A stretch of 64,000 nucleotides of DNA from the NCBI RefSeq assembly GCF_013315695.1, contig NZ_CP054353.1; one strand, written 5' to 3'. The DNA comes from Escherichia coli. GTDB taxonomy: Bacteria; Pseudomonadota; Gammaproteobacteria; Enterobacterales; Enterobacteriaceae. The notes beneath the pieces were generated by a model that saw only the letters and a program-made list of their open reading frames with translations, was not told where the DNA came from and did not search any database. Shown here in pieces: positions 12,307 to 18,750 of this stretch; position 1 is the stretch's first letter; each line of letters opens with the position of its first letter. A program made the translations under genes and the position numbers.

Positions 12307-13509
12307 TTACCTGAACTGATAATGACCTTCGCCCAATCGAATAACCCTTCCCTCTTCTTCTGCGCGGTTCAGCCACACACTAATTTGTTCGATGGTTAAA
12401 CCAGTACAAGACGCCAGCCTTTCAATACTTATCGATTCCTTTGCAAGGATCGCCAGTTCCGCCACAAAGAGTTGATAAAAATCGACAGGCGTATGCGCGG
12501 GCATTACTGCGTAATTTGCGTCATCTTCATGCAGCGAAAACAGTTCTGGTTGAACGTTACGGAGTGCTTTGTCATACATCAGCCCAGGAACGTCTGGCAG
12601 TCTGATCGTCACATTCTCAGCCTGTTCAGCACTCCATGACGCCCCATTTTCTACTAATCGTGAATTGGCTGATTGCACATCCTGATTTGGTTTAACCAGA
12701 ACAGGCAGCCACTGATGTTTTAACGCCTCCATCGCTCCGGTTATCGTTCCACCGGTCATTCCCGCACGTACAACCATTGCGCTTTCAGCAAGGCAATAAA
12801 TATATTTATTCCGCGCCATTGCATTGCCGACGGTGAAACGTACCTCTGGGTAAAACGGTGAAATCAACACCAGGTTGCCTGCTATAAGCCCTTCACGCCA
12901 TTTCACTAACGTACTCGTTTTTAACAAGCTATCAGCTAATACGCCAACGGCAGTTCCCCCGGCCTCCAGTGCCGACGCCATTGCACATTCATCAATACCT
13001 CGCGCACCACCAGAGATAACGCAAATCCCCTGTTGGGCCAGTTTCGCTGCCAGTTGTTGGGTATAGCGCAAATCGGCAGTCGGAGCATCTCGCGAGCCAA
13101 CAATCGCCATACCTTCCGCTTGCAGTAATGCTTTATTCCCGCAGCCAAATAAAACGGGAGGTGCATCCGTTCGCAATCGGTTTTTCAAGCGAACGGGATA
13201 ATCGGCATCTCCGCGGGTTAAGATCCATAAACCGGCGCGTTGCCACTTATCTACCGCCAACGCCAGACTATGACCACGCGCCAGCAAGCCAAGAATACGC
13301 TCCTGAGAAATACGCGGATCGCTCCAGCCTGTAAGTTTCTCTTGCGGTTGCGGCACCAGAAGATCGGCGGGACTGATACGTTGGTGCTTCAGCCATAATG
13401 CAAACTTCCCCCATTCACTATTACTAAGAGGTTTATACTCACTCGCCGCCGCGCGAGAAAAATCGCTGGTTAGCAGGAGAGTTGCTTGTGCATTGGCTGA
13501 AAGATTCAT
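12307..13509 (-). CDS. DprA/Smf-like protein; putative partner (PsyrA/RqlI-like) of the upstream helicase
   Basis: 400 aa from ATG at 13509..13507 (the ORF-track start at 13602 lies inside the upstream gene). Rossmann motif VISGGARGIDECAMASAL typical of DprA, and a C-terminal winged-helix-like tail. Start shares one base with the upstream stop (TGATG). Confidence 0.75.
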   Translation of the reverse strand: MNLSANAQATLLLTSDFSRAAASEYKPLSNSEWGKFALWLKHQRISPADLLVPQPQEKLTGWSDPRISQERILGLLARGHSLALAVDKWQRAGLWILTRGDADYPVRLKNRLRTDAPPVLFGCGNKALLQAEGMAIVGSRDAPTADLRYTQQLAAKLAQQGICVISGGARGIDECAMASALEAGGTAVGVLADSLLKTSTLVKWREGLIAGNLVLISPFYPEVRFTVGNAMARNKYIYCLAESAMVVRAGMTGGTITGAMEALKHQWLPVLVKPNQDVQSANSRLVENGASWSAEQAENVTIRLPDVPGLMYDKALRNVQPELFSLHEDDANYAVMPAHTPVDFYQLFVAELAILAKESISIERLASCTGLTIEQISVWLNRAEEEGRVIRLGEGHYQFR

Positions 13510-15605
13510 CAATTTTTTACCGAGGTAGAAGCAAGGGCAAGAGGATAAACCGTCGGGCAACCTGCCTGGCGTAACAGTGCTGTCAGAACTGTCAGCGTCC
13601 ATGCAGAATCCACGATATCATCAACCAGCAACGCCGGACCTGGCATCAAAGGAGGGGTAATCACAAACGCCCCGTCGAGATTTTGACACTGGTGAAAACG
13701 GTTTTGCTGCATTTTCTGCGGTGGATTGTCCACGACTTTTTCAATGGCATCAATAAAAGGTAAGCCAAGTTTCGCCGCCAGTCGCCGGGCAAAATCAGGA
13801 ACCAGGTCGAGGTGCCTTAATGAAGGAACGCAGCATACCCAGGTTGGTTCAGGATGCGGATTCCAGCGTTGGCGAACCATTTCCGCACATGCTTCTACCA
13901 GCTCATCACTTAAGCGCCCCGTTTTTTTCTCCTGTGCTACCTGCTTTCCCCACCCGGAATCTCCCCAACGAGAAAGGATTCGCCCCGTAGATCCTTGTAA
14001 ACCCGCAGGCAAGTTCCCTTTAAATCCGTATTGCGTAAAAGCCCCAGCTGCCACCTGTTTATTGAGATTTAACGGCAGGTCAGCGTGTTTAATAAATAAA
14101 TTTGCCGCATGGAGTAAGCCGCTATCAATGTCGGGCGACAATAACGGATGCTGAAGACAACTGCTACATTTACCACAACGTTCGGCACTTGGCTCATCGA
14201 GTGCACGGCGCAGAAATTGCATTTTGCACTCCTTGGTCGTGATATAGCTTTCAACGTCTGCCAGTTCACTTTTTCTCTGATTCATCAAATGGTTAATTCG
14301 TTCATGATCAGGAGAAAAACTGACGATAGTTCTGCGCCATAATTTCTCGGTATACACCACAGGCGATGGATTTTCCGCTACCAATAATTTCAGTGCTTTT
14401 TCTATTTGCCCATAACGAAGATTCGTCCGTTGTTCAATGCCTCGTAGGGTAAGACCGTCATTCTCGCTAAGTACGTTGAGTATTTCATGAATTTGCGCCT
14501 CCGCAGGAAAGGCGCTTTCACGGAAGAATTGATGAATAGCGCGGTCTTCACCACCACAAAGCAATATGCCAACTGCGGAATCTATAGCACGCCCGGCACG
14601 CCCCACCTGTTGGTAGTAACCGACAATAGACCCCGGCATCTGATAATGAATGACGAAACCTAAATCAGGTTTATCAAACCCCATACCTAATGCCGTCGTC
14701 GCGACCAGCACTTTGATTTTATTTGCCAGCAGTGCCTGCTCCAGATATTCCCTGGCAGTATTAGAATCTTCCGCGCCTTCACAAGTCACGCCGCTGTAGT
14801 AAGCAAATGCACTGATACCATTTTTCCTTAACCACTCGGCGACAAGTTCAGCATCGCGAGTCGTCAGGGTATAAACAATTCCCGATTTGGAAAACTGAGG
14901 GATAACCGTTGCTAACCATGCCAGACGGGATGACTGTTCTCCTAAGACTAAGGCATCAAGCGCCAAACTTTCGCGAGCCAGCGTTCCACGCTGAATCACA
15001 ATGTCACCCAATTGCTGACGGATATCCTCAACAACACGGTTATTCGCTGTCGCGGTTGTACCCAGAACAGGGGTATTCGCAGGCAGTTGGCGCAAAATAT
15101 CTAATATACGTCGGTAATCCGGGCGAAAATCGTGGCCCCAATCAGAGATGCAGTGCGCCTCGTCGACCACAAGCAAGCCAATACGATCGGCTATAGGATA
15201 TAAAACCGTTTCGATAAAGTCCTGGTTTGCCAAACGTTCCGGGGAAACCAGCAAGCAATCGACCTCACCTTGCAGCAACTTATCGCTAATGCGCTGCCAT
15301 TCTTCCCTGTTTGTAGAATTCAACGTTTCAGCCGTAATACCTAACCGTTCAGCGGCGGCAACCTGGTTACGCATCAGGGCAAGCAAAGGAGAGATGATAA
15401 TTGTCGGGCCAGCGCCGCGATCGCGGAAGATTTTACTGGCGATGAAGTACACGGCACTTTTCCCCCAGCCGGTGCGCTGTACAACCAGCAGTTTTCGCCG
15501 CTGATTAACCACTGCATCTATGGCTTCCCATTGCCCTTCCCTGAAAGTAGCGGTGGTATTTCCTAACATCCGCTGTAAAAGCAATTCAGCTCCGTGCTTT
15601 TCCAT
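13509..15605 (-). CDS. RecQ-like DEAH helicase fused to a C-terminal ComF-type PRTase-like domain (PsyrT/RqlH-like)
   Basis: 698 aa. Helicase motifs TGWGKS, VVDEAHCISDWGHDFRPDY, LGTTATA, ATTALGMGFDKPD, YYQQVGRAGRA; CGKCSSC zinc-like motif; C-terminal segment with LLVDDIVDSAWT resembling the PRPP-binding loop of type-I PRTases. Confidence 0.8.
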   Translation of the reverse strand: MEKHGAELLLQRMLGNTTATFREGQWEAIDAVVNQRRKLLVVQRTGWGKSAVYFIASKIFRDRGAGPTIIISPLLALMRNQVAAAERLGITAETLNSTNREEWQRISDKLLQGEVDCLLVSPERLANQDFIETVLYPIADRIGLLVVDEAHCISDWGHDFRPDYRRILDILRQLPANTPVLGTTATANNRVVEDIRQQLGDIVIQRGTLARESLALDALVLGEQSSRLAWLATVIPQFSKSGIVYTLTTRDAELVAEWLRKNGISAFAYYSGVTCEGAEDSNTAREYLEQALLANKIKVLVATTALGMGFDKPDLGFVIHYQMPGSIVGYYQQVGRAGRAIDSAVGILLCGGEDRAIHQFFRESAFPAEAQIHEILNVLSENDGLTLRGIEQRTNLRYGQIEKALKLLVAENPSPVVYTEKLWRRTIVSFSPDHERINHLMNQRKSELADVESYITTKECKMQFLRRALDEPSAERCGKCSSCLQHPLLSPDIDSGLLHAANLFIKHADLPLNLNKQVAAGAFTQYGFKGNLPAGLQGSTGRILSRWGDSGWGKQVAQEKKTGRLSDELVEACAEMVRQRWNPHPEPTWVCCVPSLRHLDLVPDFARRLAAKLGLPFIDAIEKVVDNPPQKMQQNRFHQCQNLDGAFVITPPLMPGPALLVDDIVDSAWTLTVLTALLRQAGCPTVYPLALASTSVKN

Positions 15606-15744: not shown

Positions 15745-17085
15745 TTAACTCAACAGCTGGAACGCAATCATCCCAACGATGGCACCAACAGTGCCGAGTA
15801 TGGTTTCCATCATGGTCCAGGTTTTCAGCGTTTCGGCTTCGGTCGCGCCGGTAAATTTACCGAACAACCAGAAACCGGCGTCGTTAACGTGGCTGACAAC
15901 AATCGAACCACCGGCGATACAAATCGACAGCGCCGCCATTTGCGCACCGGAGTAGTTCAGTTGTTCAATAACCGGCATCACCAGTCCCACCGCCGTTAAA
16001 CAGGCAACGGTGGCAGAACCCTGAATGATGCGCACTGCAGCTGCCAGCACGAAGCAGGTGATGGCAATCGGCAGGCCCATGCCGGTTAACGCTTCGCCCA
16101 GTGCCGGACCTACGCCTGAGTCAACCAGCACCTGTTTGAACACGCCGCCCGCACCAATCACCAGCAGAATGATCCCCGCCGGTTGCAGCGCGTGACCGCA
16201 AATTTCCATCACTTTATCTTTCGGCATGCCCTGACGCATTGCCAGACCGTAAATCGCCACCAGGCAAGCAACCAGAATCGCGGTAAACGGATGACCAATA
16301 AACTCGAACCATTCGTAAGCAGTAGAGCCTTCTGGCACAAAACGCGCGGCAATGGTTTTCAGCCCCACCAGCACCAGTGGCAACAGGATCAGCGACAGGC
16401 TGAATCCGAAGGACGGCATTTTGCCTTCGCCGAGATGCGGTTCGCTGATGTCGTCAGGAATATGCAACTCCACGTAGCGGCTGATGAAATTACCCCACAG
16501 CGGCCCGGCAATAATCATTCCCGGAATTGCCGCACACAGGCCAATCAGGATCATCCAGCCAAAGTCGGCGTTCATCTGCGATGCCAGCAGCATTGGCGCT
16601 GGTCCAGGCACCAGGAACGCAGCCGCGGCCGCCACGCCTGCAAATAATGGGATTACCAGCTTCACCAGGTTCGTACCGGTGTGGCGCGCCATTGAGAAAG
16701 CAACGCTAATCAGCAGAACAATCGCCACTTCAAAGAACAACGGCAACGCACAGACCAGCCCCGCAAGGCCGATGGCATAATGCGCGCGGCTGTGACCGAA
16801 GGATTTGAGCATTTTGACGGCAATCTGATCGACTGCGCCGGTTTCATGTAAGATCTTGCCAAACATGGCTCCCAGGGCGACAACCACCGCCAGGAAGCCG
16901 AGGGTGCCTCCCATCCCTTTTTCCATCGTCGCTGCGATTTTATCGAGCGGCATACCGGAAAAAAGGCCAGCCCCCATAGACACCACCATTAAAGCCAGGA
17001 AAGCGTGCATACGCGCCTTCATGACTAAAAACAGCAGCAGTAAAACAGACCCTACTGCTGTTAAAACAAGCGTTAATGTAGTCAC
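15745..17085 (-). CDS. gntU: Low-affinity gluconate:H+ symporter
   Basis: 446-aa GntP-family permease; annotated start is GTG at 17085..17083, 3 nt after the gntK stop (see finding on the internal hairpin). Confidence 0.9.
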   Translation of the reverse strand: MTTLTLVLTAVGSVLLLLFLVMKARMHAFLALMVVSMGAGLFSGMPLDKIAATMEKGMGGTLGFLAVVVALGAMFGKILHETGAVDQIAVKMLKSFGHSRAHYAIGLAGLVCALPLFFEVAIVLLISVAFSMARHTGTNLVKLVIPLFAGVAAAAAFLVPGPAPMLLASQMNADFGWMILIGLCAAIPGMIIAGPLWGNFISRYVELHIPDDISEPHLGEGKMPSFGFSLSLILLPLVLVGLKTIAARFVPEGSTAYEWFEFIGHPFTAILVACLVAIYGLAMRQGMPKDKVMEICGHALQPAGIILLVIGAGGVFKQVLVDSGVGPALGEALTGMGLPIAITCFVLAAAVRIIQGSATVACLTAVGLVMPVIEQLNYSGAQMAALSICIAGGSIVVSHVNDAGFWLFGKFTGATEAETLKTWTMMETILGTVGAIVGMIAFQLLS

Positions 17086-17088
17086 TAC

Positions 17089-17616
17089 TTATTTGCCTTT
17101 TTTAATAACCTCAATGGTGCTTGCCACAACACCTTCCAGCGGTTGATCGATATCCACCACCAGTACATCGGTTTCGTCCGCACCCGGCTCCTGCAGCGTT
17201 TCAAACTGCGTCACTAACATTTGGGTTTTAAAGAAATGGCCTTTGCGCGCTTTCAGGCGGCTTTCAATCACATCAAAATCGCCTTTCAGGTAGATGAACG
17301 AGAGATTCGGATTACCTTCACGCAGCAAGTCGCGATAGTGTTTTTTCAGTGCAGAACAGACGATCAGCGACACTTTATTGGTACGCTGCATGGCAAACGC
17401 GGCGTCGTTCAGCGCCTGCAACCACGGTTTGCGATCGTCGTCATTCAGCGGTTCACCAGACGCCATTTTTTCGATATTGCGCCGTGGATGGAGGAAATCG
17501 CCATCAAGAAACGCGGCATGAAGTTGATGCGCCACTTCACTGGCGACCGCAGATTTGCCGCTGCCCGATACGCCCATCAAGACGTAAATGTGGTGATCAT
17601 GGTTAGTCGTGCTCAA
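17089..17616 (-). CDS. gntK: Gluconokinase (thermoresistant)
   Basis: Protein matches GntK from (L)STTNHDHHIYVLMGVSGSGKS (P-loop); the codon at 17616..17614 is TTG, so the gene seems to use a TTG start; the ORF track extends 7 codons further up to another TTG. Confidence 0.9.
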   Translation of the reverse strand: MSTTNHDHHIYVLMGVSGSGKSAVASEVAHQLHAAFLDGDFLHPRRNIEKMASGEPLNDDDRKPWLQALNDAAFAMQRTNKVSLIVCSALKKHYRDLLREGNPNLSFIYLKGDFDVIESRLKARKGHFFKTQMLVTQFETLQEPGADETDVLVVDIDQPLEGVVASTIEVIKKGK

Positions 17617-17646
17617 AGTGGTGCCCCCACAATACAAGAATTAAAA

Positions 17647-17675
17647 ATGTTACGGGTAACTGTTATCGGTAACAT
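17647..17675 (-). promoter_or_regulatory. Tandem GntR operator half-palindromes in the gntK promoter
   Basis: ATGTTACGGGTAAC and TGTTATCGGTAACAT lie adjacent, 10-40 nt upstream of gntK; match the palindromic GntR operator ATGTTACCGGTAACAT. Confidence 0.6.
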
Positions 17676-17754
17676 TGTCCAGCCGGACAATATCAGAAGC
17701 AATATCCATCCGTGCCTTAAGTGTATAAGTGTGAGCTACTTCAAATTTGTGGGC

Positions 17755-18750
17755 TTAAATAGATCCGCCCGGTGACAAGGTGAAACCTAAATCTAACATT
17801 TTCGGTGTCACAGATTCGCCACGAATACGCGCCAGCAGGCGTTCAGCGCCAATACTGCCCATCCGCTCACGCGGCGTCAGTACGCTCGCCAACCGTGGTT
17901 CCATCACCTGACCAATGTCATGACCATGGAAACCGGCAATCGCCATATCGTCAGGAACTTTCAACCCCAGACGCTGGCATTCAAACGCCGCGCCGACCGC
18001 CAGGTCATCATTAGTACAGAACACGCCATCCAGCTGCGGATATTCCCGCCTCGCCTGGCGAATCAGTTCAATACCGGAAGAGTAAGAAGAAGATTGTTCA
18101 ACCATCACGCTATACGGCACCAGGCCTGCATCCAGCATCGCCTGCTCATATCCCTTCTGTTTGATGATAGTACGTTCGTCGAGGCGTGCGCCGAGATAGG
18201 CAATGTGACGATGCCCGCGAGCAATAATGGCGGTGGTCATCTGGCGTGCCGCTTCAAAGTTATCAAAACCGACGGCGATATCGAGACACGGCGACTGGCT
18301 GTCCATCAGTTCCACCACGGGAATCCCCGCCACTTCAATCATCTTTAAGGTGCGCGGCGTGTGCGTACGTTCAGTGAGGATCAGGCCGTCGATATTCCAG
18401 GAGAGCATGGATTCGAGGCGTTCTTGCTCCATTTCCGGTTTATAACCGTAGTGGGCCAGCATGGTCTGATAACCGTGCGCGTCGGTGACGCTTTCGATTC
18501 CGCGTAATACTTCCGCAAAAACCTGGTTGGTGAGAGAAGGTAACAGGACGCCAATCGCCCGGCTGGTGGCGTTAGAGAGGATATCGGGCGCACGATTGGG
18601 AATATAGCCCAGTTCATCAAGAGCGGCGGCAATCTTGCCGCGTAGAGCGACGGAAACCTGCTCCGGGTTACGCAAAAAGCGGCTGACCGTCATTTTGGTC
18701 ACGCCTACACGGTCAGCCACATCCTGAAGTACGGGTCTTTTCTTTTTCAT
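17755..18750 (-). CDS. gntR: LacI-family gluconate repressor
   Basis: 331-aa ORF; N-terminal HTH LQDVADRVGVTKMTVSRFL. Confidence 0.97.
   Translation of the reverse strand: MKKKRPVLQDVADRVGVTKMTVSRFLRNPEQVSVALRGKIAAALDELGYIPNRAPDILSNATSRAIGVLLPSLTNQVFAEVLRGIESVTDAHGYQTMLAHYGYKPEMEQERLESMLSWNIDGLILTERTHTPRTLKMIEVAGIPVVELMDSQSPCLDIAVGFDNFEAARQMTTAIIARGHRHIAYLGARLDERTIIKQKGYEQAMLDAGLVPYSVMVEQSSSYSSGIELIRQARREYPQLDGVFCTNDDLAVGAAFECQRLGLKVPDDMAIAGFHGHDIGQVMEPRLASVLTPRERMGSIGAERLLARIRGESVTPKMLDLGFTLSPGGSI

Follow-up and report, generated by a model that had tools for sequence, protein, structure and literature searches.

The gntK gene in the window, by which is meant the whole 64,000-nucleotide stretch of Escherichia coli DNA that was analysed, was found to start at a TTG codon at 17616..17614 on the minus strand, and every line of evidence run placed gntK initiation at this codon. 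An earlier note on this DNA, made from the sequence alone, had proposed that gntK uses a TTG initiation codon, and this proposal is supported by annotation, by identity with a crystallized protein (PDB 1KNQ), by the NCBIfam model NF008583, by a Shine-Dalgarno sequence, by the codon pattern in 80 species and by a published paper (PMC12523793). The TTG start is ordinary and already recorded, both in curated annotations and in that paper from 2025, in which UUG is given as the natural start codon of gntK. UUG starts approximately 3% of known E. coli genes (bioRxiv 10.1101/063800), and 10 TTG starts were confirmed by N-terminomics among 688 E. coli database starts (PMC13245402). No entry for gntK, b3437, P46859 or STTNHDHH was present in the supplementary tables of INRI-seq (PMC9825163) or of the TRAINSPOTTER N-terminomics study (PMC13245402).

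Read on the minus strand, the start region consists of TAA (17643-17641), TTC, TTG (17637-17635), TAT TGT GGG GGC ACC ACT and TTG (17616-17614), followed by AGC ACG ACT AAC CAT GAT CAC CAC ATT TAC GTC TTG ATG GGC GTA and then by TCG GGC AGC GGC AAA TCT. The codon directly preceding STTNHDHH is thus the TTG at 17616..17614, exactly where the earlier note had placed the beginning of the GntK N-terminus, and the protein read from 17616 would start with (M)STTNHDHHIYVLMGVSGSGK. The frame is closed by the in-frame TAA at 17641..17643 (minus strand), nine codons upstream of this TTG. A codon walk between the two showed neither ATG nor GTG in frame, so that the absence of an in-frame ATG upstream within the ORF could be upheld, and the sole other start-type codon was a TTG at 17637..17635, seven codons further up. 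It is from this upstream TTG that the mechanically derived ORF (17089..17637, 182 aa) begins, as had also been noted.

The gntK coding sequence (17089..17616, minus strand, 175 codons and a stop codon) encodes a thermoresistant gluconokinase, as shown by identity with 1KNQ, by NF008583 and by RefSeq. ORF residues 8-182 were identical to residues 1-175 of chain A of PDB entry 1KNQ (E=3e-115), and five further PDB entries gave the same result. As 1KNQ derives from the cloned annotated ORF, what this identity establishes is the existence of a real, folded enzyme of 175 aa, and not the site of native initiation. The NCBIfam equivalog model NF008583 matched with 372.3 bits (cutoff 265), with model position 1 falling on ORF residue 8, and TIGR01313, which describes the GntK/IdnK-type family, matched with 241.5 bits (cutoff 113.75), with the family core starting from ORF residue 18. 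The P-loop GxxxxGKS is present as GVSGSGKS. The thermosensitive paralogous gluconokinase IdnK, whose gene idnK (gntV) starts with ATG, belongs to the same family (TIGR01313) as the protein in the window. Against the idnK model NF007336, the window protein scored 183.9 bits, which is below the 304-bit cutoff, and it is therefore GntK and not IdnK.

A search with an 801-nt query covering gntK gave matches in 5424 of the 5426 complete E. coli genomes, and strain MS 21-1 showed 100% identity. In the PGAP annotation of MS 21-1, gntK is 528 nt long and its first base is equivalent to position 17616 of the window; the same TTG was called as start by PGAP in four other strains, namely MS 21-1 and three variant strains. 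Comparison with curated gntK annotations, which had been suggested as a check, gave the same answer: in K-12 MG1655, gntK (b3437, NP_417894.2, 'D-gluconate kinase, thermostable') is 528 nt long and starts at the same TTG in an identical context. The gntR-gntK-gntU gene order was taken from the RefSeq annotation of MS 21-1 (identical over 801 bases) and of MG1655. Compared to the K-12 gene (b3437, GNTK_ECOLI, 1KNQ), the window was shown to have the same 175 residues, the same DNA in the start region, the same gene order and the same TTG start, without any difference in gntK itself; the strains differ downstream of gntU. Among annotated proteins, the 175-aa form, named GNTK_ECOLI, was found on at least 1000 contigs and the 182-aa form on 25 contigs, mostly in older O157:H7 records, and a 163-aa annotation was found in E. 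albertii. Such a spread of forms is commonplace when starts are called automatically.

Within the 20 nt preceding the TTG at 17616, a GGGGG Shine-Dalgarno sequence (17624..17628, minus strand) pairs with the 3′ end of 16S rRNA with a duplex energy of -8.4 kcal/mol, and it is separated from the TTG by the 7-nt spacer CACCACT. A Shine-Dalgarno sequence 5-10 nt upstream is one of the features looked for in a gene with a UUG start, and the spacing in gntK lies inside this range. The 96-nt stretch around the gntK start was less structured than 199 of 200 shuffled sequences (z = +2.15), which is what an accessible initiation site would be expected to show. The near-cognate start codon, the good Shine-Dalgarno sequence with canonical spacing and the lack of structure in the initiation region are features that gntK has in common with UUG-initiated E. 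coli genes in general, as is the rise in expression when the codon is replaced by AUG.

The comparative set contained one genome per species and comprised 80 Enterobacteriaceae loci (L003-L082) with GntK identities of 90-99%. The codon homologous to the gntK start was TTG in 77 of these loci and ATG in the other three (Yokenella regensburgei, Trabulsiella odontotermitis, and Buttiauxella sp.). All 80 loci contained a purine-rich Shine-Dalgarno sequence (GGGGG, GGGAG, GGAGG or GAGGG) with energies from -5.6 to -11.8 kcal/mol. The nearest in-frame stop codon was located 7 to 40 codons upstream of the homologous start. Over 81 sequences, codon 1 was TTG in 78 and ATG in 3, with no synonymous leucine codon, whereas each of the 14 invariant internal leucine positions (14/14) was encoded by three to six synonymous codons. 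Since codon 1 varies only between TTG and ATG while internal leucines are encoded by varied codons, codon 1 evolves in the manner of a start codon and not of a leucine codon.

This pattern bears directly on the reading in which translation starts at the upstream TTG (17635..17637, minus strand), giving a 182-aa protein beginning with MYCGGTTLSTTNHDHH in which the TTG at 17616 would be an internal leucine. Such a start gives the longest ORF, it corresponds to the 182-aa form present in some GenBank O157:H7 annotations, and Escherichia, together with a few Citrobacter and Kosakonia genomes, retains the TTG at codon -7. However, an in-frame TTG at codon -7 occurs in only 13 of the 80 loci, and in 36 loci the stretch from the upstream stop to the homologous start codon contained no in-frame ATG, GTG or TTG. 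The supposed internal leucine is never encoded by a synonymous leucine codon and is replaced by ATG in three species, and the leaders upstream of the gntK start differ in length by non-multiples of 3. Besides, no Shine-Dalgarno complementarity was detected before the TTG at 17637, the A/T-rich 20 nt in front of it scoring +0.5 kcal/mol against the 16S rRNA 3′ end, and 17616 is the start in the curated annotation of MG1655, in PGAP and in NF008583. The upstream TTG was therefore judged not to be the start, and its use as such is considered very improbable, although low-level initiation at this codon may occur in Escherichia.

A start further downstream, either at the TTG of Leu13 (17580) or at the ATG of Met14 (17577), would leave STTNHDHH untranslated and is considered more improbable still. 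No in-frame ATG precedes the one at 17577, and the 163-aa annotation in E. albertii agrees with a start in this region, but such a protein would have 0-1 residues left in front of the P-loop GVSGSGKS and would lose residues belonging to the TIGR01313 model, which runs from ORF residue 18. In addition, the 80 species conserve STTNHDHH(I/V)Y at the protein level while its codons show synonymous changes. The Leu13 codon was CTG in 73 of 81 sequences, which shows that Leu13 is not a conserved start, and no meaningful Shine-Dalgarno sequence was present upstream of the downstream candidates. Scores of -5.7 kcal/mol obtained for these candidates against the anti-Shine-Dalgarno sequence were traced to the GAUC palindrome of the 13-nt probe and not to its CCUCC core, and were rejected. 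The explanation of the gntK TTG as a sequencing or assembly error, or as a strain-specific mutation of an ATG, can be dismissed, and no evidence in its favor was found. Sequencing error had been named in the earlier note as a possible refutation; MG1655 was shown to be identical, 4857 of 5424 complete E. coli genomes carried the 84-nt start region (17577-17660) with 100% identity, the remaining 567 showing 95-99% identity, and TTG is present in 77 of 80 other species. With this degree of identity, a sequencing error at the TTG is excluded. Three variant strains were aligned, and their differences spared both the TTG and the Shine-Dalgarno sequence. In strains DG343-1 and 7CC the upstream TAA (17643..17641) reads TAT, so that the frame extends further upstream, and the annotated TTG start was the same.

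Translation of gntK from the UUG at 17616..17614, placed by its Shine-Dalgarno sequence, read by fMet, limiting synthesis through the UUG itself and preceded by a 21-nt leader, is thus held with near certainty as a whole. From general knowledge of bacterial initiation, the GGGGG sequence 7 nt upstream would position the 30S subunit on the UUG, which would then be read by fMet-tRNA(fMet) with a first-position mismatch, under the scrutiny of IF3. As the initiator tRNA would read UUG, GntK is expected to begin with methionine and not with leucine, and since serine follows, this methionine is probably removed, giving a product starting with STTNHDHH. The UUG would also be expected to initiate less efficiently than AUG, in which case the start codon would act as a built-in limiter of GntK synthesis. 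This lower efficiency has indirect support from one engineering paper, in which a change of UUG to AUG in gntK brought the residual gluconate down from 0.42 g/L to less than 0.05 g/L, with better gluconate use (PMC12523793). The 21 nt from the TTG at 17637 to the TTG at 17616 would constitute non-coding leader RNA.

This putative leader follows an inverted-repeat pair resembling a GntR operator, ATGTTACCGATAACAGTTACCCGTAACAT (17647..17675, minus strand), located in the leader/promoter region of gntK. Most of the 80 loci retain this element ahead of gntK, and its distance to the start varies among them by lengths that are not multiples of three. Within the gnt regulon, ATGTTACCGATAACAGTTACCCGTAACAT (17647-17675) would be a putative GntR operator sequence. 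In the Klebsiella/Raoultella group, where the leaders look unrelated, the 60 nt nearest the start contained no similar element. A further sequence, TTTGAAGTAGCTCACA, located at approximately 17733-17748 on the minus strand just past the gntR stop codon, resembles by eye a pair of CRP-binding half-sites (TGTGA-N6-TCACA). A simple scan of the gntK strand from 17500 to 17850 gave neither a promoter nor a terminator and no sigma-70 match.

In the surroundings of the gnt genes, a gene for a 698-aa RecQ-family helicase (13509-15605, minus strand) and an overlapping DprA-like gene were found between gntU and yhgN. In MG1655, yhgN directly follows gntU, whereas the window strain contains the RecQ-family helicase and DprA-like genes between them, and this pair looks like a strain-specific insertion. 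In MS 21-1 (locus L086, 12794-15914), an IS1A transposase gene was found to adjoin a yrhB/yrhA/Hcp1-family (tssD) cluster a few kb past yhhX-yhhY; this IS1A/yrhB region would lie inside the window if the identity between the two strains extends beyond the 801 bases compared.

The gntU gene, which is co-transcribed with gntK, was also shown to start with a codon other than ATG. Its GTG start (17083..17085, minus strand) lies 3 nt after the gntK TAA according to the ORF list and the annotation. Over the 80 Enterobacteriaceae species, the gntU start codon was GTG in 59, TTG in 21 and ATG in none, and in 74 of them the gntU start was located at -4, -1 or +3 nt from the gntK stop codon, i.e., abutting or overlapping it. 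These positions point to translational coupling, and the start codons to a non-AUG start that is conserved in the second gene as well. As gntU never starts with ATG and its start abuts or overlaps the gntK stop in most species, gntKU may as a whole be adjusted to a modest level of coupled translation. With its TTG kept in 77 of 80 species and a co-transcribed gntU that is never ATG-initiated either, gntK may differ from UUG-initiated E. coli genes in general.

A comparison of substitution rates was made by parsimony on a neighbour-joining tree. The first position of the gntK start codon had undergone 2 changes, both T to A, compared to a mean of 15 changes at four-fold degenerate sites. Only 2% of the four-fold sites were as conserved as this position overall, but the proportion was 21% when transversions only were counted, which is not significant, and the evidence for selection on the retained T is thus suggestive but not conclusive. 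It is conceivable, although we regard it as rather doubtful, that the weak starts of gntKU are held by selection and not by drift, and that they cap the synthesis of gluconokinase and transporter on induction. A possible purpose of such weak starts would be a limited flux through 6-phosphogluconate/KDPG, or a fixed GntK:GntU ratio obtained through translational coupling.

These results show that the start of the curated 175-aa GntK is right and that the longest-ORF rule over-extends the gene by 7 codons, which is a routine annotation caveat. The TTG start in itself matters little, being of low interest and already known, and exchange of UUG for AUG has already been used to raise GntK output in engineered strains. 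The avoidance of AUG by both genes of gntKU across the Enterobacteriaceae could reflect selection for limited expression.
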